38,065 nt of DNA from an uncultured Ruminococcus sp. (GTDB taxonomy: Bacteria; Bacillota; Clostridia; Oscillospirales; Ruminococcaceae): NCBI GenBank assembly GCA_946540705.1, contig CAMNJD010000565.1, positions 1 through 38,065 on the forward strand, read 5' to 3'. Under the pieces are notes generated by a model. The model made no database searches. It was not told the DNA's origin and saw only the letters and a program-made list of their open reading frames with translations. The translations under genes were made by a program, and so were the position numbers. Shown here piece after piece: positions 2,665 to 23,986 of this stretch; the stretch's first letter is position 1; the number at the start of each line of letters is the position of its first letter.

Positions 2665-3066
2665 TCATTCCTCCTTACGCCACATATTCCCAGATCTTTT
2701 CTTTCTGCGGTCTCTGTCCATATTCGGAAGCGCGTTCCTGATATGATGCACCGGTGGCCTGCGATCTGTCCGGCTGTCGGCAGCGCGGATGTAACGAACC
2801 GGCTTCCAGCGCCTGCGCGGCGGTGTCTCGTATTGCTCTTGCGTAGCATCGGCAAGTGCATTACAGATATTAGGTAAGGTATCGTTAAGGAATTGACCAA
2901 TGCATTCAACGATTTTCCGAAAAGCATCCGCGATAGCCTCAACTGCTTCACGGACGGACTCTATAACCCGATCAATATGCAGCGGATACCAATAGCGCCC
3001 GATGTGAAAAAACAGATCGTCTAACATGATCCATTCGGAGCAGCTCCATTCTGTTACTTCATTCAT
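2665..3066 (-). CDS. hypothetical protein (133 aa, basic C-terminus)
   Basis: Track ORF 2665..3093. Start set at ATG 3066 (GTGAGGTG 6 nt upstream). No recognisable motif. Confidence 0.6.
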   Translation of the reverse strand: MNEVTEWSCSEWIMLDDLFFHIGRYWYPLHIDRVIESVREAVEAIADAFRKIVECIGQFLNDTLPNICNALADATQEQYETPPRRRWKPVRYIRAADSRTDRRPPVHHIRNALPNMDRDRRKKRSGNMWRKEE

Positions 3067-3199
3067 TCCGCACCTCACTTCTGAGCCATTCAATCATACC
3101 GTCTGCTCGACCTCTTATCCCTGCACACTTCATCTCGGTGAATGCAGTAATCACATTCGATTGCCTTCGCCATCGGTCGCGTTTTCTTGAAACTGCCAT
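3059..3199 (-). CDS. small basic protein (46 aa)
   Basis: Hand translation MAVSRKRDRWRRQSNVITAFTEMKCAGIRGRADGMIEWLRSEVRNE. AGGAG lies 10 nt upstream. Fills an otherwise empty gap and overlaps the next start by 8 nt. Confidence 0.3.
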   Translation of the reverse strand: MAVSRKRDRWRRQSNVITAFTEMKCAGIRGRADGMIEWLRSEVRNE

Positions 3200-8114: not shown

Positions 8115-9711
8115 AAGTTGTTACCTCCACAGGCGGGATATATTCGCTCGGAACGACGCCGTGCGGAATCTGCCAGTTGTTTGCGCTGATGCGGGAAATC
8201 ATGTTCGACGCAGCTTCAAACTGCCAAGTTCCGACATGCTGAAAACCGCGGGATTCGAGGAATCGGATCTGCTTCGGTGTCGTGAGCCCTGCCCTCTGGC
8301 GCTTTTCCAGACGCTCGATGAGCAACTTCGCCTTGCCGGCGCTCTCGATCTCGTCCGGAAAGATGCCGCGCTTTTCGAGCATTGCTTTCTGCTTGTCGGA
8401 CGGCGGTGCGCACTCCCATCCGAACGCAGGAACGTATCCGCTCAGATCCTCCGCGCAGATCGACATTTCGTATTGCAGCGGATCCACGAGCTTGCGCTTG
8501 CGCTTCTTGCACTCCGCAAGTTTCTTTGCGAGCGCTTCCTCGCGCTGCTGCTGGACTTCATCTGCTGCCGCCGCAGCCGCTTCCTCGATGTCAATTTCGC
8601 AGCCTGCATTTTCGGAGAGATCCTCTGTCATTTTTGCCGCAACCTCTTGGCTGTCGCAGATCAGGTGCGCCGGACGGCACAGCTCGTGACGCTCCGTGTG
8701 CCATAAAAAGTCAAGCAGCAGCAGATGGTCCTTGCCCTCGCAGAGCCGTGTCCCGCGCCCGACCATCTGACAGTACAGTGAGCGCACCTTTGTCGGGCGG
8801 AGAACAATCACGCAGTCAACAGACGGACAGTCCCAGCCCTCGGTCAAAAGCATCGAGTTGCAAAGCACGTTGTATTTGCCGCTGTCAAAGTCTGCGAGGA
8901 TCTCCGCACGGTCGTCAGATGTACCGTTGACCTCCGCAGCCCGGAAGCCGAAACCGTTGAGGATATCACGGAACTTTTGCGAGGTCTTGATCAGCGGCAG
9001 AAAAACAACCGTCTTGCGATCCTTGCAGTATGTCTGCATCTCCTCGGCAATCTGCATCAGGTACGGATCCAGTGCGCTGTCAAGGTCTCCAGGCTTAAAA
9101 TCGCCGCTCTGGATACCGACGCCGGAAAGATCTAGCGTCAGCGGGATCGTCACCGCCTTGATCGGTGAGAGGTATCCCTCTTTTATCGCCTGCGGCAGCG
9201 TGTACTCATAAGCAAGGCTGTCAAACACATTGCCCAGCTCGCGCATGTCTCCGCGGTCAGGTGTTGCCGTGACGCCGAGTACCTTTGCGTCGTGGAAGTG
9301 TTCGAGCACCCGCTGATAGCTGTCTGATACGGCGTGATGCGCCTCGTCGATGATGATTGTGTCAAAGTAGTCCTCCGGAAACTTTTGCAGGCGCGTCTCA
9401 CGCATAAGCGATTGCACCGAGCCGACCGTGATCCGGAACCACGAGCCGAGACAGGATTGCTCAGCCTTTTCGGTCGCGCATTGTAAGCCGGTTGATTTTT
9501 TGATTTTGTCAGCAGCCTGGTCAAGCAGCTCTCCGCGGTGTGCGAGGATCAGCACACGGTCGCCAAGTCTCACGCAGTCCTCCGTGATCTTGGCAAAGAC
9601 GATCGTCTTACCGCAACCCGTAGGCAGGACGAGCAGCGTGCGTGTGTTGCCTTGCTGCCACTCGTCCTGCACTGCCACTCGTGCAGCCTGCTGGTATGGT
9701 CTCAGCTCCAT
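8074..9711 (-). CDS. SF2 DEAD/DEAH-box helicase (ResIII + Helicase_C type)
   Basis: 545 aa. LRPYQ, PTGCGKT (motif I), IIDEAH (motif II), VTATP (motif III), QMVGRGTR (motif VI). About 170 aa of C-terminal extension. Confidence 0.85.
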   Translation of the reverse strand: MELRPYQQAARVAVQDEWQQGNTRTLLVLPTGCGKTIVFAKITEDCVRLGDRVLILAHRGELLDQAADKIKKSTGLQCATEKAEQSCLGSWFRITVGSVQSLMRETRLQKFPEDYFDTIIIDEAHHAVSDSYQRVLEHFHDAKVLGVTATPDRGDMRELGNVFDSLAYEYTLPQAIKEGYLSPIKAVTIPLTLDLSGVGIQSGDFKPGDLDSALDPYLMQIAEEMQTYCKDRKTVVFLPLIKTSQKFRDILNGFGFRAAEVNGTSDDRAEILADFDSGKYNVLCNSMLLTEGWDCPSVDCVIVLRPTKVRSLYCQMVGRGTRLCEGKDHLLLLDFLWHTERHELCRPAHLICDSQEVAAKMTEDLSENAGCEIDIEEAAAAAADEVQQQREEALAKKLAECKKRKRKLVDPLQYEMSICAEDLSGYVPAFGWECAPPSDKQKAMLEKRGIFPDEIESAGKAKLLIERLEKRQRAGLTTPKQIRFLESRGFQHVGTWQFEAASNMISRISANNWQIPHGVVPSEYIPPVEVTTYEPFGDFGTASVI

Positions 9712-18107: not shown

Positions 18108-18219
18108 CCGAAGTCAACCGACGCGAACGAGTGTTCTATTTCTATTGTACAACAAAACACATGTTTTGTCAAGCGGCTGGTGTGCAAATTTTTACATATA
18201 CTTTTGAAAGGTGGTTAAA

Positions 18220-19032
18220 ATGGGCATTTTTGATAAGCTGAAAAATGCTATGAGTCAAGCAAAGCAAGCGACGGCAGCTCCAGCAAAAGCGCCAGAACCC
18301 AAAAAGCTAAGTTACAGCGAACGAGAAGCGATATATCGCCAGAACAAAATCAATGAATTCCGCGAGATCCTGTCCGGTCTCCGGAAGGTCAAAATTGAAT
18401 TAAGCGAGGAAAAGCGCAATCGAAACAATGCGATTGAGATGCCGGAGATATCTCCAAAAAACATTACGAAATCAACAAATCTATCAAAGCTGCGCGATTT
18501 TATCGCAATCGACACCGAGACGACCGGTCTGAAGCCTGGCGGAAATGATGTAATCGAAGTGTCCGCCGTCCTCTTTCACGACTTCGAGCCTGTTGAAGCG
18601 TTCTCGACGCTGATTAAGCCGAGAAAACCGATCCCGCCGGATGCCACTGCTGTAAACGGCATCACAGACGATATGGTGCAGGATGCTCCAAGATTCTACG
18701 AGATCGCGCCTGCGCTCGAAGCGTATCTCAAAAAGTTGCCGCTTGTCGGGCATAACATTGCTTTTGATTTGCGGCATCTGTTTGTAAACGGTCTCGGCTC
18801 TGTTGATCAACATGTAATCTACGATACACTTGCACTCAGCAAAAAATTTTGTGATGATGATATACTTGATTACAAACTCGCAACCGTATGCAAAGAGTAT
18901 CTGATATACATGGACGATGCCCACAGAGCGACCGCTGACGCGCTGGCTTGCGGACTGCTTTTTGTCAGTTTTATTTTGCAGTCGCGCGACGATTGCTATG
19001 ATATCGGAGATCTGATAAGCAAATGCGGCTAA
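18220..19032 (+). CDS. DEDDh (DnaQ/epsilon-like) 3-5 exonuclease with about 95-aa unknown N-terminal extension
   Basis: Start at ATG 18220 (AAAGGTGG 5 nt upstream). ExoI FIAIDTETTGL, ExoII LVGHNIAFDLRHL, ExoIII HRATADALA. Confidence 0.8.
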   Translation: MGIFDKLKNAMSQAKQATAAPAKAPEPKKLSYSEREAIYRQNKINEFREILSGLRKVKIELSEEKRNRNNAIEMPEISPKNITKSTNLSKLRDFIAIDTETTGLKPGGNDVIEVSAVLFHDFEPVEAFSTLIKPRKPIPPDATAVNGITDDMVQDAPRFYEIAPALEAYLKKLPLVGHNIAFDLRHLFVNGLGSVDQHVIYDTLALSKKFCDDDILDYKLATVCKEYLIYMDDAHRATADALACGLLFVSFILQSRDDCYDIGDLISKCG

Positions 19033-19055
19033 GTGCCAAGCAAAGGGGTGATCCT

Positions 19056-20108
19056 ATGGCAAAAGCAAAGAAACTGCCGTCAGGGAGCTGGAGTGTGAAC
19101 CAGTTCATAGGCATGGATCAGAACGGCAAGCGCATATACAAGCGCTTCACCGCGCCCACAAAGCGCGAGGCGGAGTATCTTGCAGCGGAGTATGTTGCAA
19201 AGAAAAAGCGCCCAGTCGAACGGATGACCGTCGGCGAGGCGATAGACAGGTATATTGAAAGCAAGGACGGCGTACTCTCGCCGACCACAGTAAACGGATA
19301 CCGGAATCTCCGGAACAATCATTTTGCAGGGCTTATGGACATCCGGATCGACCGGATCACGCGGGAAGATGTGCAACGTGAAGTGAACAGTGAGTCAAAG
19401 CGGTTCAGTGCGAAAACAGTCATCAATGCGCACGGCCTGCTCGCTGCAGCGCTTGCTATGCATAATCCTGATTTCGTTCTGCGGACTACCCTGCCCCGCA
19501 AAGTCAAGCAGCTCAAGCGTGACCTGCCGACCTCTGAGGACGTCATCAGAGCCATTCGTGGCAATCCTGTGGAGCTTCCTGTACTGTTGGCTATGTGTCT
19601 GTGTCTGCGTCTCTCAGAGGTCAGAGGCGTGCGCAGAAGCGCTGTAGAAGGCGATCGGCTTCGCATTGACCGTGTGATTGTGACAGTCAAAGGCGCTCAC
19701 ATCGAGAAGGAGCTGCCGAAGACGGATGCGTCCCGGCGATATGTTGACATTCCGCCGTTTCTGCGTGACATGATTCTGGCATCAGAGACGGAGTATATCA
19801 CAACACTGACAGGCCGTGCGATCTACGGGCGTTTCGTCAACGCCATGAAGAAAGCAGGCTTTGAAGGTGTACGCTTCCATGACCTGCGACATATCTCCGC
19901 AAGCGATATGCACGCGCTTGGGATCTCTGACCGTGTTGCAGCAGAGCGCGGCGGATGGGCAGGCACTCAGACTATGCAGCAGGTCTACCAGCACAGCTTT
20001 TCCGTTGACCGCCGGAAGGCAGACAAGAAGATGTGCGAATACTACGAAAAGCTGATAAATGCAACACGAAATGCAACACGCGACATCGAAACCAACGAAT
20101 CTACGTAG
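19056..20108 (+). CDS. int: phage tyrosine integrase
   Basis: Start at ATG 19056 (350 aa). N-terminal SAM-like core-binding region. LRLSEVRG (R), HDLRH (HxxR), GGWAG, QQVYQH (Y). Ends 9 nt before the tRNA-like att core. Confidence 0.9.
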   Translation: MAKAKKLPSGSWSVNQFIGMDQNGKRIYKRFTAPTKREAEYLAAEYVAKKKRPVERMTVGEAIDRYIESKDGVLSPTTVNGYRNLRNNHFAGLMDIRIDRITREDVQREVNSESKRFSAKTVINAHGLLAAALAMHNPDFVLRTTLPRKVKQLKRDLPTSEDVIRAIRGNPVELPVLLAMCLCLRLSEVRGVRRSAVEGDRLRIDRVIVTVKGAHIEKELPKTDASRRYVDIPPFLRDMILASETEYITTLTGRAIYGRFVNAMKKAGFEGVRFHDLRHISASDMHALGISDRVAAERGGWAGTQTMQQVYQHSFSVDRRKADKKMCEYYEKLINATRNATRDIETNEST

Positions 20109-20116
20109 CGTTTCGC

Positions 20117-20140
20117 GGGGTTCGATTCCCCTCACCTGCT
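20117..20140 (+). other. tRNA 3-prime-end-like fragment (T-arm plus acceptor strand), probable att core
   Basis: GGGG-TTCGATT-CCCC T CACCTGC T is a canonical T-stem/T-loop followed by 7 nt plus a discriminator. No matching 5-prime half upstream. Confidence 0.6.
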
Positions 20141-20145
20141 TATTT

Positions 20146-20193
20146 AAAAACCGCTGTATTTGCGTGATTTCAGCGCAGGTACGGCGGTTTTTA
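20146..20193 (+). terminator. rho-independent terminator after int / att core
   Basis: AAAAACCGCTGTA...TACGGCGGTTTTT. 9-bp outer stem with one G-U pair, inner TGCG/CGCA pairing, T-run at 20188-20192. Confidence 0.6.
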
Positions 20194-20283
20194 TGTTGCA
20201 TATATGTTGCAGAATATAAGCATTTTTGAATCAAAAACAAGCATTTTTAAGAGGAATGCAACACGAAATGCAACACGAAAAAC

Positions 20284-20322
20284 AACCGACAGCGGATGAG
20301 CTCCCCTGCCGGTTTTTCTTTT
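20284..20322 (+). terminator. rho-independent terminator upstream of the accessory cassette
   Basis: AACCGACAG-13 nt-CTGCCGGTT with one A.C mismatch, followed by TTTTTCTTTT. Confidence 0.55.
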
Positions 20323-20381
20323 CAATAACAAAATCTCACAATTTGCAGCCTGCGCTTTTGTGCAAGTATACAAAAGTTGAG

Positions 20382-20426
20382 TTTGTGGCAACTTTTTGCT
20401 GATTTCCTATTGACTTTGTGGCAACT
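20382..20426 (+). repeat. direct repeat TTTGTGGCAACT x2 (operator-like)
   Basis: Exact 12-mers at 20382-20393 and 20415-20426, 33 bp apart. The second copy lies in the promoter spacer. Confidence 0.5.
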
Positions 20427-20438
20427 CTATGATATAAT
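20410..20438 (+). promoter_or_regulatory. accessory-cassette promoter TTGACT-17-TGaTATAAT
   Basis: -35 at 20410-20415, 17-nt spacer, extended -10 TGATATAAT ending at 20438. A 63-nt purine-rich leader runs to ATG 20502. Confidence 0.7.
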
Positions 20439-20501
20439 ATAATCAAGGAAAGGGAAGGAAAACCCAAAGGAAAACCAAGAGAACAAACGGAGGAAAAGAA
20501 A

Positions 20502-20744
20502 ATGAAAAAATATAAGTGGGTTAAGCATTTTGAAAACTGGAATAACCGCGGATATTCGCTGCACGACAACACAACCGGAAAAAATATTGCATGGATTGAG
20601 GAAAATAATTACTGTGATTATACAGTACATGCAAGCGACTACATATTAGCTGCATATAGATACCCGCATACACTCGCCGAAACTATGGCGGCATGTGCAA
20701 AAAGCGCCGGAATCAATCCGGAAGAAATTGAAGAGTACAACTAA
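20502..20744 (+). CDS. hypothetical protein (80 aa), accessory gene A
   Basis: GGAGGAAAAGAAAATG RBS. AT-rich. No motif recognised. Followed by the hairpin GCCGCCGG-GTTGAT-CCGGCGGC (20753-20774). Confidence 0.65.
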   Translation: MKKYKWVKHFENWNNRGYSLHDNTTGKNIAWIEENNYCDYTVHASDYILAAYRYPHTLAETMAACAKSAGINPEEIEEYN

Positions 20745-20799
20745 TAACAACAGCCGCCGGGTTGATCCGGCGGCACAACATGAACAGGAGGTAAGGAAA

Positions 20800-21147
20800 A
20801 TGAAAGACTTCATCGAGAAATGCAAGAAGTTTCTTGCCACGCCGAATATCACAACGCCGAAATTCTGTATATATACAGAATCCGGAAAAGTTGCAAACAG
20901 CGATACTCACAAAGATGGCGAAACGCTCTATGCTATTATCAAAATGGACGACGGGAAGATTGTTGCTTTTTGGGGAAATGCGTTTTATACGCTTCACGGC
21001 GAAAAGGTATATATCCTGTCTGAACATGATGAATATATCAGTTGCAGCGGTCAGATTCGGCTCCATGTAACAATTCCGCAAGAAGGAATGGTTTTTAAGA
21101 CATATTCAGCACAGATCGTTAACTATCAGGATAAATTTGTTTTGTAA
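20800..21147 (+). CDS. hypothetical protein (115 aa), accessory gene B
   Basis: Track ORF 20695..21147. Start at ATG 20800 after ACAGGAGGTAAGG. AT-rich. Confidence 0.65.
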   Translation: MKDFIEKCKKFLATPNITTPKFCIYTESGKVANSDTHKDGETLYAIIKMDDGKIVAFWGNAFYTLHGEKVYILSEHDEYISCSGQIRLHVTIPQEGMVFKTYSAQIVNYQDKFVL

Positions 21148-21160
21148 GGAGGTATGGAAA

Positions 21161-21379
21161 ATGAAAATTGATAACATCATTAAAAAAATAAATAATACAT
21201 GCAAGCCGTTTGATATTGACGATTTGCGAGCAATCTTTACAGCAGCTAACAACGCCGAAGGGCTAAAGATGCTCGAAAGTATCGACGATACCGACGATAT
21301 ACCGATTGATATTATAGACAGCGCGATGTATGATCTCGGATACTATGCAGATACAGCAGGGACATACAGAAAATTGTAA
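21161..21379 (+). CDS. small acidic protein (72 aa), accessory gene C
   Basis: Start at ATG 21161 after TAAGGAGGT. 12 Asp and 2 Glu against 8 Lys/Arg. One sampled 60-nt line is about 23 percent GC. Confidence 0.6.
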   Translation: MKIDNIIKKINNTCKPFDIDDLRAIFTAANNAEGLKMLESIDDTDDIPIDIIDSAMYDLGYYADTAGTYRKL

Positions 21380-21403
21380 TCAAACAGGCAGGAGGTAAAG
21401 GAA

Positions 21404-22402
21404 ATGGGTAAGAAGATTGACGAGCCGTTGCCGTTTATGCTCTTGAAGCAGATCCCCACGAAAGCGTGGGAACTCTGCGACAAGTGCATGGAGCTAAAAC
21501 AGGAAATGCAATGGAGTGACCGGTGCATCCTTCCGATTGCTGCCGGAATGTCTGTTGCTGGTGAGATCGGTAAGGATATGGCTGCGGACGGCTATAAGAT
21601 CTCCGCGCTTTACGCATGGAGAAAGTACAAGGAAATCTACTCTTTCGACGATGACCTTGCAGAAATTCTCATTGGTCAGGCTGACTCTGGCATGGACATC
21701 CCGATGCCGATCCTGTATCAGCTCCCATACCCCTGCATTTTCATCCAGTACAAGAGCGCTGGCTTCTTTGTCCATTTTGAGCATGATGTAAACAATCAGC
21801 AGTTTGAGCTGCGGATGTGGTACATCAATGAAGCAGAAAAAGAAAGTGTCCCGCTGATCCTGCACATCGAGGACGACTGCACCATCGACGAAGCAATGCA
21901 AAAGACAGTCGAAGAAGCGAAGCGGCACACAAAGCACCCGGACGTGGATTTCCTCATCGAACAAGGCGGCGTTCCAATGGCACAGAAAGCCGCTGAGCTG
22001 CTGCAATTCATCTTGTACATCTGTGCGGACAATTCCGAAAAAGAGGAAGATCCGGAGCAGAAGAAGGTCACACGCCGGACCGATGAATCCGAGAAAAAGC
22101 CGAAGGACGTCTTCCGGGAAATCCGGAAGTGGGACGTCGGCTATCGGATCGGGAGCCAGATCAGACGCATGAAGGCGAACGACCACGATCAAAGCGAGAA
22201 CGCAGATCAGAGCGAGGCCACCGTCAGGGCATACCAGAAAGGCAGCAAAAAGGCACCGCATGCACGCCGCGGCCACTGGCATCACTACTGGATCGGCAAA
22301 CGGGAAACCGACGAGCGCAAGCTGATCCTGAAATGGGTCGCCCCCATTTTTATCAACGGCGATGAAGGCGACAACATCGCCACAATCCATCCCGTGAAAT
22401 GA
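21404..22402 (+). CDS. hypothetical protein (332 aa), accessory gene D, with basic His/Trp-rich C-terminal motif
   Basis: AGGAGG RBS. Acidic/Lys-rich linker, then HARRGHWHHYWIGKR...LILKWVAPIFING. No family recognised. Confidence 0.7.
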   Translation: MGKKIDEPLPFMLLKQIPTKAWELCDKCMELKQEMQWSDRCILPIAAGMSVAGEIGKDMAADGYKISALYAWRKYKEIYSFDDDLAEILIGQADSGMDIPMPILYQLPYPCIFIQYKSAGFFVHFEHDVNNQQFELRMWYINEAEKESVPLILHIEDDCTIDEAMQKTVEEAKRHTKHPDVDFLIEQGGVPMAQKAAELLQFILYICADNSEKEEDPEQKKVTRRTDESEKKPKDVFREIRKWDVGYRIGSQIRRMKANDHDQSENADQSEATVRAYQKGSKKAPHARRGHWHHYWIGKRETDERKLILKWVAPIFINGDEGDNIATIHPVK

Positions 22403-22415
22403 AAGGAAGATCATC

Positions 22416-22847
22416 ATGAAAAAAATCAAAAACGGCAAGGTATACGATACTACAACCGCCAGAAAGCTCGGCGAATATGCGCCGAATCCGAACCAGTCCG
22501 ATTTCAGCTATTACTGCGAGACGCTTTACCAAAAGAAGACCGGAGAGTACTTCCTTCACGGGGCAGGCAATGCGTCCAGCCCGTACAGCAAGAGCTGCGG
22601 GATCAACGAGATGTGCAGCGGTGAAGAAATCAAGCCGCTTTCTTACGAAGCAGCACAGAAGTGGGCGGAGGATCATCTCGACGGAGACGAGTACTGCGAG
22701 ATCTTCGGCGAGCCGGACGAGGATGCGGAAGACGAAAAGATGACAGTCCGCCTTTCCGCTGCTGCCGCTGCCAAGCTCGCGCGTGAATCTGCAAAAAACG
22801 GCATCACCAAGCAGGCGCAGCTTGAGCGATGGATCTTGGATGCGTAA
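22416..22847 (+). CDS. hypothetical protein (143 aa), accessory gene E, with C-terminal ribbon-helix-helix-like segment
   Basis: AAGGAAG RBS. N-terminal KVYDTTTARKLGEY...DFSYYCETLYQKKTGEYFLHGAG. Acidic linker. C-terminal KMTVRLSAAAAAKLARESAKNGITKQAQLERWILDA looks CopG/RHH-like. Confidence 0.65.
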   Translation: MKKIKNGKVYDTTTARKLGEYAPNPNQSDFSYYCETLYQKKTGEYFLHGAGNASSPYSKSCGINEMCSGEEIKPLSYEAAQKWAEDHLDGDEYCEIFGEPDEDAEDEKMTVRLSAAAAAKLARESAKNGITKQAQLERWILDA

Positions 22848-22896
22848 AAAAAAGGAACCGGCAGAGAGCGAAGAAAAGCCCCCTGCCGGTTTTTTG
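22846..22896. terminator. bidirectional rho-independent terminator between the accessory cassette and the endolysin gene
   Basis: AAAAAAAAGG-AACCGGCAG-18 nt-CTGCCGGTT-TTTTTG. Perfect 9-bp stem with an A-run upstream and a T-run downstream. Confidence 0.75.
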
Positions 22897-23604
22897 TTAC
22901 AGTGTCAGTTTTGCTTTCGTAAGCGGGCCGCAGACGCCGTCAACTGCGAGGCCGTTTTCGAGCTGGAATGCGCAGACGGCTCCGAGCGTGATCCTGCCGA
23001 AGTCGCCGTCGATCTCAGTCTTGCGCATATAGCCCAGCGCGTGCAGCCGTGCCTGCATCAGCTCCACTTCCGCGCCGGTGTCGCCTTTGCGGATGACCCT
23101 GATCGGCGCAGCGGCAGCAGGCTGGAGCACAAAGCCGAGGAACCGGTAGGCGCTGCTCTGCCCCCAGTTCCCGCTTTCACGGTACCGGTGCTGTGTCCAG
23201 AACGGGTTCTTGCTGTTGTACCCGCTCTCGCTGGTGATGATGCTGCCGTCCGACTTGATCTCCTCGACCACAGCAACATGCCCCGCGCCGTCAGTGCCGT
23301 TATGCGTTTTGCCTTTTGCCCAGCATGCGACCGCACCGAGCTGCGGTTTCTGGCTGATCGGCAGCCCCGCTGCAATCCCGGTATCATAAAAGTCTTCAGC
23401 ATTGGGCGGATGCTGGAAGTACACAAATTTACCTGCACCGATAATCTCGTTGAAGCGACCTGCCGCATAGCCGACGCAGTTGTGCAGCACATCGCATCCC
23501 GGATCCGTCGGGTGCCCTTTGATCGCACCGGAATACCCGCCGCTTGCAATCCGGTTGTAGTAGGGGTTCCCCGCTTCGGGTTTCACGAGTCTTGGCTTGA
23601 ACAT
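22897..23604 (-). CDS. endolysin: CHAP peptidase/amidase + PG_binding_1
   Basis: Track ORF 22897..23763. Start at ATG 23604 (AAGGAGG upstream). HNCVGYAAGRF (Cys), AGHVAVVEEIKSDGSIITSESGYN (His). C-terminal GDTGAEVELMQARLHALGY...DGDFG...AFQLENGLAVDG. Confidence 0.85.
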   Translation of the reverse strand: MFKPRLVKPEAGNPYYNRIASGGYSGAIKGHPTDPGCDVLHNCVGYAAGRFNEIIGAGKFVYFQHPPNAEDFYDTGIAAGLPISQKPQLGAVACWAKGKTHNGTDGAGHVAVVEEIKSDGSIITSESGYNSKNPFWTQHRYRESGNWGQSSAYRFLGFVLQPAAAAPIRVIRKGDTGAEVELMQARLHALGYMRKTEIDGDFGRITLGAVCAFQLENGLAVDGVCGPLTKAKLTL

Positions 23605-23605
23605 C

Positions 23606-23986
23606 TCAATTTTCCTCCTTATCGTTAAAATTCCGCAGTTTCTTGATGATTTTCGCCACCCATGTTGCATCGGGCGATATCTCGCCGTAGTTTTCGAGGA
23701 TGCTGACCAGCTCCATGAGCACGATATACATAAACACAGCACCCGCTGTGACTGTTCCGGCAATTCCTGCGAGCTCCGGTGTCTGGTAGTACTGTCCGAG
23801 CATACCGATTCCGATCTCCAGACCGCAGGCGACAGCCATCACGAGAATTTCGCAGACCTTATTCAGGCCGCCGGTGCGCATCTTCTGCGAGCTGAGGTCA
23901 TGCGCGATGTATGCCTTGATGATGCCGGTCAAAAAGTCCGCCGCAGCAAGCCCGATCACAATTGTAATCATGATGATGTATTTCAT
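23606..23986 (-). CDS. holin (Phage_holin_4_1 / TcdE-like)
   Basis: 126 aa with three hydrophobic spans. ADFLTGIIKAY...GGLNKV motif. Immediately upstream of the endolysin gene. Confidence 0.8.
   Translation of the reverse strand: MKYIIMITIVIGLAAADFLTGIIKAYIAHDLSSQKMRTGGLNKVCEILVMAVACGLEIGIGMLGQYYQTPELAGIAGTVTAGAVFMYIVLMELVSILENYGEISPDATWVAKIIKKLRNFNDKEEN

Follow-up and report, generated by a model that had tools for sequence, protein, structure and literature searches.

A variable-cargo phage cassette with an AcrVA2/FinQ-like gene and a predicted ribbon-helix-helix autoregulator

Introduction

What does an uncultured temperate phage of gut Clostridia-like bacteria carry between its attachment site (attP) and its lysis genes, and how would this cargo be controlled? 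We addressed this question in a 38,065-nt stretch of DNA from an uncultured Ruminococcus sp. (assembly GCA_946540705.1, contig CAMNJD010000565.1, positions 1 to 38,065 of the forward strand), referred to below as the window, in which five plus-strand genes, named A to E, form a compact cassette. A preliminary description, made from the letters alone, had seen here an AT-rich accessory unit with its own promoter, a repeated 12-mer as a possible operator and terminators on both sides, and had named anti-defence among the functions to be considered. In this study, we describe a promoter-operator module whose sites change together with the tail of the E protein among related loci, and a gene, D, that resembles the anti-CRISPR gene acrVA2. 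Together, these findings lead us to read the cassette as an accessory operon of the acr-aca (anti-defence) kind that regulates itself and has variable cargo, a reading to which we assign a probability of about 60%. To our knowledge, few anti-CRISPRs are known from gut Firmicutes phages. Regulators of acr-aca operons that are of the ribbon-helix-helix (RHH) type have been described only recently (Aca14, PMC13551039; AcrIE10, PMC13530269).

Results

Putative operator sites and the tail of E change together across related loci

Gene E, the last of the five, has 274 close homologues of ~143 aa, in which no Pfam domain was found, and a profile search recovered 4,084 representative clusters (50% identity clusters) at E-values ≤ 1e-3. 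In the alignment, residues 1 to ~100 form an N-terminal domain that is strongly conserved; an acidic linker and a C-terminal tail come next, and the first segment of the tail falls into discrete classes (KMTVRLS, TLGLNVS, ALNLIIS, TLGIAVS, TLCIRVS, QIHINLS and others). The RHH-like tail of the preliminary description was recovered in the form of weak profile matches of E and its relatives, all below the curated cut-offs and all confined to RHH families, namely Antitox_RHH (1.6e-4), HicB (4e-4), RHH_5 (0.0017), NikA (0.005), RHH_1 (0.011), RHH_3 (0.033) and MatP_C (0.038), and also BrnA. An AlphaFold2 (AF2) monomer model of E, with a predicted local distance difference test score (pLDDT) of 86, places helices at residues 115-128 and 132-142 after an extended segment, and the tail as modelled resembles an RHH monomer before dimerisation.

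A scan for E-family genes downstream of a TTGACT-17-TATAAT promoter returned 37 loci. In all of them a 12-nt site stands directly after the -35 element and a second copy lies upstream, usually at 28 to 33 bp (range, 19 to 75 bp), and a given class of E strand is always found with the same site (Table 1). Furthermore, a GCAACT half-site is common to both strands that have Arg at the fifth position. When promoters from 11 modules were aligned, the -35 and -10 elements and the greater part of the leader proved to be conserved, with the cores of both sites varying jointly. The two cores of a locus differ by 0.32 nt on average, compared to 2.87 nt after shuffling across loci, and none of 20,000 shuffles reaches the observed value; the distance between beta-strands correlates with the distance between operators (0 of 5,000 permutations reach the observed correlation).

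Table 1. Classes of E strand and the putative operator sites found with them
E strand	Operator site	Loci
KMTVRLS	TTTGTGGCAACT	Window, L213, L216, L230; at least 3 different cargo contexts
TLCIRVS	TTTATAGCAACT	L226
TLGLNVS	TTTCTAGAAACT	L183, L219
TLGIQVS	TTTCTAGAAA(A/G)T	L222
TLGIAVS	(T/A)(T/A)TCTAGAAA(C/G)T	L224
ALNL(I/M)IS	TTCTACAAACT	L003, L126
AQIHINLS	TTTGGCTAAACT	

A sibling phage at locus L003 offers a close comparison. It has the same integrase, attP, promoter and leader layout as the phage in the window, and its D and E proteins are 90% and 71% identical to those described here; its E strand is ALNLIIS, and its repeat, TTTCTACAAACT, occurs in two copies 32 bp apart. In the window itself, the KMTVRLS site is present in exactly two copies, 33 bp apart, and the repeat around them extends to 22 nt at 86% identity. 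A search of the 38-kb window for further E sites gave no third exact copy, and matches with two mismatches occurred at chance level.

The promoter had been called near-consensus, and it does agree with the consensus at 11 of 12 positions and carries the TG extension, in a region that is not enriched in promoter-like sites (5 found, 3.6 expected). The suggestion that the repeated 12-mer is an operator also gains from the covariation of its core with the E strand across the 37 loci. On these comparisons, E very probably binds the two sites. Since one of them sits in the spacer between -35 and -10, E would repress its own operon, and since the site core tracks the E strand across the 37 loci, E is likely an autorepressor; we are fairly confident that it serves as the autoregulator of this operon. 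Locus L216 has two tandem E-type promoter-operator modules in one cassette (1942-1990 and 3031-3080), and E would therefore control two transcription units there.

Between the promoter and gene A lies a leader that carries reiterated AGGAAAACC units and is nearly identical in sibling cassettes with different first genes. Its folding energy is that of shuffled sequence (z = -0.07), and Rfam, against which 19900-23100 was scanned with a permissive threshold, gave chance-level matches only, leaving the leader without a family. A CsrA-type reading of the GGA motifs that had been pointed out in the leader is thus not borne out, and CsrA-type and Aca2-type RNA motifs were both dropped on the ground that the leader folds as unstructured.

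The conserved N-terminal domain of E

The first 100 residues of E contain three nearly invariant residues, C61, C67 and H87, which may form a metal or disulfide site, together with an invariant KKTGE-F motif. The domain is modelled with six strands and two helices and has no significant match in the PDB. Some relatives of E consist of the N-terminal domain only, and one fuses it to a Ros/MucR zinc finger rather than to an RHH tail. Searches of the PDB with the whole of E, as a single sequence and as a profile, gave no match; Foldseek returned no PDB match with an E-value better than 0.85, and its matches in BFVD were uncharacterised viral proteins only. HicB-like and Pur-alpha-like folds, which were considered for E, found no support in the Foldseek and PDB searches. 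The E family is without a Pfam model or a solved fold and would be a previously undescribed family of regulators.

Gene D resembles AcrVA2 in sequence, fold and key residues

Gene D had been listed among products without a recognisable family, and this did not hold. PF26125 ("AcrVA2-like") is assigned to a protein identical to D in other assemblies and to all 120 listed homologues of D, one of which NCBI lists under the name "AcrVA2 family anti-CRISPR protein". The Pfam copy used in our first scan of A to E was without this model, and the sole strong match among A to E in the PADLOC, NCBIfam, Pfam and PHROG scans was that of D to phrog_6160 (6e-48; function not known). Compared directly with AcrVA2 (PDB 7ci1), D gave an E-value of 1.1e-8 in phmmer, and a profile of 32 D homologues gave 5.3e-19 with a collinear match over positions 73-321 of 334. 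The structural evidence agrees: when the AF2 model of D (pLDDT 79.5; predicted template modelling score, pTM, 0.79) was compared with the PDB in Foldseek, the only significant matches were the AcrVA2 entries 7ci2_A and 7ci1_B (E-values 5e-11 and 9e-10; probability 1.0), with template modelling (TM) scores of 0.55-0.61, and the next PDB match had an E-value of 0.27. Gene D is thus almost certainly a member of the AcrVA2/FinQ family.

Bound to the nascent N-terminus of Cas12a, AcrVA2 brings about the loss of the cas12a mRNA, and its residues W79, D89, H286, R288 and H291 are needed, since their mutation impairs function (Marino et al., bioRxiv 10.1101/2022.11.29.518452). These residues align with W72, D82, H286, R288 and H291 of D, the last three within the C-terminal motif PH286aR288RGH291WHHYW. 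W72, H286, R288 and H291 are invariant in the 32 homologues, and D82 is not among the listed conserved columns. Relatives of D in the genome collection come from Oscillospiraceae, Clostridia and other metagenome-assembled genomes. We consider it unlikely that the target of D is Cas12a itself.

Cargo varies around a candidate regulatory unit

In the relatives that we looked at closely, E is the last gene of short same-strand cassettes that occupy the slot between recombinase and lysis genes, with the exception of L003, where one gene follows E. The placement of an accessory unit in the att-to-lysis slot, as first proposed, is therefore shared by many related phages. The content of the slot is another matter. 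Crude clustering sorted the cargo between the E-type promoter and E in 40 loci into 38 families, very few of which have a Pfam domain; when 20 cargo proteins were scanned against Pfam, Gp111, a Zn ribbon and a CapR-like domain were the only matches. The window, L003, L216 and L230 have AcrVA2-like cargo; other siblings carry a GNAT of 112-118 aa (L224, L226), Phage_Gp111 (L219) or orphans of 41-223 aa. In L003, an unrelated 142-aa gene takes the place of A to C and a Zn-ribbon gene is added after E, and L230 has the same 142-aa gene plus A-B-C-D-E.

Genes A, B and C have no family match in Pfam, PHROG, PADLOC or NCBIfam, and A and C also have no match among GenBank phages. A belongs to a 90% cluster of 8 members, C is a singleton 90% cluster, and B has 3 matching clusters only among 5.8 billion proteins. 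By tblastn over 125 D-bearing loci, A and C were found in two near-identical contigs only and B in none. The view that the products lack a family accordingly stands for A to C, is eased for E by its sub-threshold RHH matches and falls for D. The five genes also do not make up the co-conserved system that a neighbourhood comparison might have revealed: A to C recur only in near-identical relatives, and most loci with D or E lack the other. Compared across loci, the constant unit is promoter, putative operator, leader and E, with hypervariable cargo, and A to C would be recently acquired AT-rich orphans that are not an obligatory part of it.

The joints between cargo genes can be traced in part. 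At L001, where D is identical to that of the window and B is absent, the GC-rich hairpin and ribosome-binding site (RBS) that precede B in the window directly precede C, after the 3' remnant of another gene. A near-identical AGGAGGTAAGGAAAATG junction after the hairpin at 20753-20774 precedes B, and similar junctions precede C and D (RBS junctions at 20785-20802, 21146-21163 and 21386-21406). From their sequence, these junctions look like recombination joints for the exchange of cargo.

Some observations on individual cargo genes stand by themselves. Two members of the 90% cluster of A, P0243 and P0248, are annotated as 165 aa, with the A sequence following an unrelated 85-aa N-terminal part that reads through the RBS region; they are probably over-extended gene calls in a cassette where A is not first. 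The sole distant relatives of B (58-62% identity) close another array of small genes in a 51-kb phage, which also encodes an Acb2/Tad1-hairpin protein (anti-CBASS/anti-Thoeris sponge-like) ~3.5 kb away on the opposite strand (L227:5001-5336 and 8870-9241). The GNAT genes of L224 (4606-4944) and L226 (4584-4940) stand just before E and match Pfam Acetyltransf_1. AcrVA5, an anti-Cas12a protein, is a minimal GNAT too.

The adjacency of D and E raises the question of whether they form a type II toxin-antitoxin or abortive-infection pair, with D as an mRNA-decay toxin and E as an RHH antitoxin able to counteract D by way of its N-terminal domain and to regulate its own operon. The two genes are 13 nt apart here; elsewhere, several lineages have them side by side, in either order, among them cases with 4-nt overlaps and cases of an N-domain-only E directly upstream of D. 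Conditional autoregulation through promoter repeats is typical of toxin-antitoxin loci, and the weak matches of E to HicB and BrnA, which fall on the RHH regions of these antitoxins, would suit such a pair. However, pairing is far from obligate, with D and E together in 18 of 213 loci, and, within the close clade of E, the genes that precede it are many and unrelated (GNAT, Gp111 and orphans of 41-142 aa). The fold of E matches neither HicB nor any solved antitoxin, and AcrVA2 is no general toxin, its effect being specific to cas12a in transcriptomics (Marino et al., bioRxiv 10.1101/2022.11.29.518452). The defence genes suspected at this position by the preliminary description did not surface either, as none of A to E matched PADLOC-DB v2 at an E-value ≤ 1. 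We regard a toxin-antitoxin pair as highly improbable. The ~320-aa reading frames beside N-domain-only relatives of E were considered as cryptic AcrVA2-like proteins and, when checked, were not.

Layout, composition and neighbours of the cassette

The coordinates and sizes of the five reading frames are as first described (Table 2), and they run opposite to the endolysin gene and a holin-like ORF. Strong Shine-Dalgarno sites had been ascribed to every gene; this is true of A to D, whose RBS is GGAGG or AGGAGG at 7-9 nt 5' of the ATG, and not of E, where a weaker AAGGAAG is found. The terminators said to bracket the cassette are both present when folding is compared with shuffles, the first weaker and the second strong. 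No plus-strand terminator lies inside the cassette. Judged by sequence and folding, the five genes form an insulated operon, which has a near-consensus promoter and a leader without structure: the terminator-like hairpin at its start would insulate it from integrase transcription, and the terminator at its end, flanked by an A-tract and a U-tract, is common to the cassette and the convergent endolysin gene. The GC-rich stem-loop between A and B marks a cassette junction.

Table 2. Coordinates of the cassette and its neighbours in the window
Feature	Position	Strand	Remarks
DEDDh exonuclease gene	18211-19032		RNase_T family; overlaps integrase start by 10 nt
Tyrosine integrase gene	19023-20108		Identified by Pfam match
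attP region	20058-20289		Integrase arm-type repeats around tRNA-3'-end-like core
Terminator-like hairpin and U-tract	20284-20320	+	Hairpin 20284-20314; -14.3 kcal/mol, z -2.6, then GGUUUUUCUUUUC
Distal operator copy (putative)	20377-20398	+	Core TTTGTGGCAACT at 20382-20393
Promoter (predicted)	20410-20438	+	-35 TTGACT at 20410-20415, 17-nt spacer, extended -10 TGaTATAAT, -10 at 20433-20438
Proximal operator copy (putative)	20415-20426	+	TTTGTGGCAACT within promoter spacer
5' leader	20439-20501	+	63 nt, 84% purine; ends in GGAGG RBS of gene A
Gene A	20502-20744	+	80 aa, isoelectric point (pI) 5.7; orphan cargo
GC-rich stem-loop between A and B	20753-20774	+	8 G-C pairs, -19.1 kcal/mol, z -3.8, no plus-strand U-tract
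Gene B	20800-21147	+	115 aa; orphan cargo
Gene C	21161-21379	+	72 aa, acidic, pI 4.25; orphan cargo
Gene D	21404-22402	+	332 aa; AcrVA2/FinQ family (almost certain)
Gene E	22416-22847	+	143 aa; proposed autorepressor
E, N-terminal domain	22416-22715	+	Residues 1-100
E, C-terminal RHH tail (predicted)	22734-22844	+	Residues ~107-143
Bidirectional intrinsic terminator	22854-22896	both	-23.5 (+) / -28.8 (-) kcal/mol, z -5.2 / -7.6
Endolysin gene	22897-23763	-	CHAP + PG_binding_1

The cassette had been described as AT-rich, with genes A to C singled out. This applies to genes A to C and the promoter region, the lowest-GC 880-nt stretch of the window, with 37-40% GC and a GC content at third codon positions (GC3) of 41-43% (41% for gene A), and does not extend to D and E, which, at 53-54% GC and a GC3 of 67-68%, resemble the rest of the phage (52.7% GC). 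Such a patchwork could be taken as a set of mixed, unrelated morons of the lysogenic-conversion or selfish kind, without a role in defence or counter-defence, with E as a local transcription factor. The GC content of A to C does show separate acquisition, these genes have no detectable relatives of known function, and the cargo is heterogeneous. On the other hand, the only characterised members of the D family act in conflict between mobile elements and hosts or among mobile elements, and hypervariable cargo next to a conserved, specificity-switching regulator points to arms-race selection. A mixture of unrelated genes is thus, in our view, very unlikely.

At the left of the cassette, the attP region contains a tRNA-3'-end-like core, GGGGTTCGATTCCCC, at ~20118-20132 (inside ~20109-20140), 3' of the integrase gene, and arm-type repeats, with direct copies of AATGCAACACG at 20058-20080 and 20255-20289 and two inverted copies of TATGTTGCA at 20192-20211. 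The predicted attB is the tRNA 3' end GGGGTTCGATTCCCCTCACCTGC; no complete tRNA gene was found in the attP region. The pairing of exonuclease and recombinase genes is also present in L213. Arm-type repeats vary among siblings, being AATGCAACACG in the window, ACATGACACGAAA in L003 (240-470) and ATGACACGG-like in L226 (4190-4390), and tRNA-3'-end-like att cores at the same position vary as well; the integrase/att module would therefore change its specificity in parallel to, yet independently of, the adjoining cassette. Among GenBank phages, no DNA match was found to the cassette (distant mode) or to the structural half (near mode).

Discussion

We propose that the cassette works as an autoregulated operon with exchangeable cargo. 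In this model, the extended -10 promoter would drive a single polycistronic A-B-C-D-E mRNA. E would dimerise through its C-terminal RHH and occupy both sites, one in the spacer and one 33 bp (three helical turns) upstream, and its binding at the spacer would shut out RNA polymerase; there would be a burst of expression from naive DNA and a low level thereafter, as with Aca proteins. By analogy with AcrVA2, D would recognise the nascent N-terminal peptide of one target, the mRNA of which would be lost; this target might be an immune effector of the host, Cas12a or some other, or else the product of a rival mobile element. A, B and C would probably be further inhibitors. As in AcrIE10, the N-terminal domain of E may bridge a pair of operator-bound dimers, or it may be an effector or sensor.

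The same parts could also be arranged into a prophage weapon against rival mobile elements, used for superinfection exclusion or fertility inhibition, with D as a FinQ-like silencer of incoming phage or plasmid genes and E holding expression in the lysogen at a low, constitutive level. Relatives of D are found on 697 plasmids, 565 of them conjugative. The cassette has its own promoter and terminators and lies at the att-adjoining end of the prophage, classically the place of morons, and the steady low output of an autorepressed promoter would suit a lysogen. Against such a weapon, a regulator with variable cargo, a near-consensus promoter and small acidic orphans are the signature of acr-aca operons, for which Aca14 and AcrIE10 offer RHH precedents. 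Similarly, the small GNATs and tiny orphans of sibling cassettes are typical of inhibitors, though they are compatible with exclusion. We consider the weapon unlikely, and it is inseparable from counter-defence on sequence alone; for the narrower point of whether the role is counter-defence rather than exclusion of rival elements, we see the chances as evenly balanced.

Several observations weigh against the acr-aca reading. AcrVA2 homologues are widespread on mobile elements but mostly in genomes without Cas12a, and the homologue FinQ blocks F-plasmid transfer and lowers tra mRNA, which is not an effect on immunity (bioRxiv 10.1101/2022.11.29.518452); both findings also speak for the weapon. 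In the searches made here, no cargo family besides D matched a known anti-defence protein, and the small GNAT cargo, compared by phmmer with solved structures including AcrVA5, gave no match at an E-value ≤ 0.01. D and E meet in only ~8% of D-anchored and ~7% of E-anchored loci. As for the regulator, the RHH assignment of E draws on sub-threshold Pfam matches and the covariation, the AF2 monomer model has two helices and no strand, and the covariation statistics ignore shared ancestry.

If E is indeed Aca-like, its family of thousands of clusters could serve as guilt-by-association bait for anti-defence genes in gut Firmicutes phages. The module is easily recognised by TTGACT, the 12-mer and TATAAT, with a second 12-mer ~33 bp upstream. 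The pairs of strand and operator would amount to a natural specificity code on an RHH scaffold, which could yield orthogonal repressors. D is a tractable AcrVA2 homologue in a defined operon and could help probe how general the decay of mRNA through nascent peptides is. More tentatively, we suggest that E founds a large regulator family that marks hypervariable counter-defence cassettes in gut Clostridia phages and beyond; that its N-terminal domain may be an effector or sensor coupling repression to the state of a target, as in AcrIE10; that A to C and ~35 other cargo families are new anti-defence proteins; and that D extends AcrVA2-type mRNA decay to an immune target other than Cas12a. We hold this combined proposal to be possible, on balance short of probable.

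How does the cassette compare with known systems? D and AcrVA2 are of similar length (332 and 322 aa), collinear in sequence, alike in fold and both borne on mobile elements, and D keeps the W, D and C-terminal PHxRRGHWH residues that AcrVA2 requires for mRNA down-regulation. They differ in that identity is ~15-16% in structural alignment and the N-terminal 70 residues of D are not aligned by sequence. Furthermore, AcrVA2 comes from Moraxella bovoculi (type V-A) and D from an uncultured phage of gut Clostridia-like bacteria, where its partner is a predicted RHH regulator and not acrVA1, acrVA3 or an aca gene of the helix-turn-helix (HTH) type.

In its layout, the cassette resembles a phage moron, being autonomous, with its own promoter and terminator, at the att-adjoining prophage end, and deviant in the composition of A to C. 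Unlike in a moron, the composition of D and E is typical of the phage, and both genes are conserved in a phage lineage. The term moron names a layout, not a mechanism.

For the architecture of E, the closest models are AcrIE10 and AcrIF25, both bifunctional. AcrIE10 joins Acr and Aca functions in one protein of the RHH type, whose non-RHH domain inhibits Cas7 and bridges RHH dimers (PMC13530269). Like AcrIE10 and AcrIF25, E is a two-domain protein, one domain of which is an autorepressing RHH (predicted for E), and in relatives the DNA-binding domain may be absent or replaced, as in the N-domain-only and Ros/MucR forms of E. The N-terminal domain of E and the 33-bp spacing of its sites could plausibly be explained on the model of AcrIE10, where a non-RHH domain bridges dimers. 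On the other hand, the RHH is N-terminal in AcrIE10 and, as predicted, C-terminal in E, and neither PDB profile search nor Foldseek relates the N-terminal domain of E to any solved Acr in sequence or fold.

The operon as a whole is most readily set beside those of the acr-aca type and Aca14 in particular, an RHH Aca that acts on a single inverted repeat, AT-rich and placed over the -10 (Feussner et al., NAR 2026, PMC13551039). Shared traits are a strong promoter with repeats over its core elements, a conserved DNA-binding regulator within the operon (for E, by prediction), and variable, often unannotated cargo, among it D, which is homologous to a validated Acr. As with Aca14, the regulator would be an RHH and not an HTH protein, and one regulator may serve a second promoter, as at L216. 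The E sites differ from the Aca14 repeat: a 12-nt pseudo-palindrome is present in two direct copies, usually with a spacing of 28-33 bp, and one copy lies in the -35/-10 spacer. With its additional conserved 100-aa N-terminal domain and its predicted C-terminal RHH, E is set apart from Aca14, as described, by its architecture.

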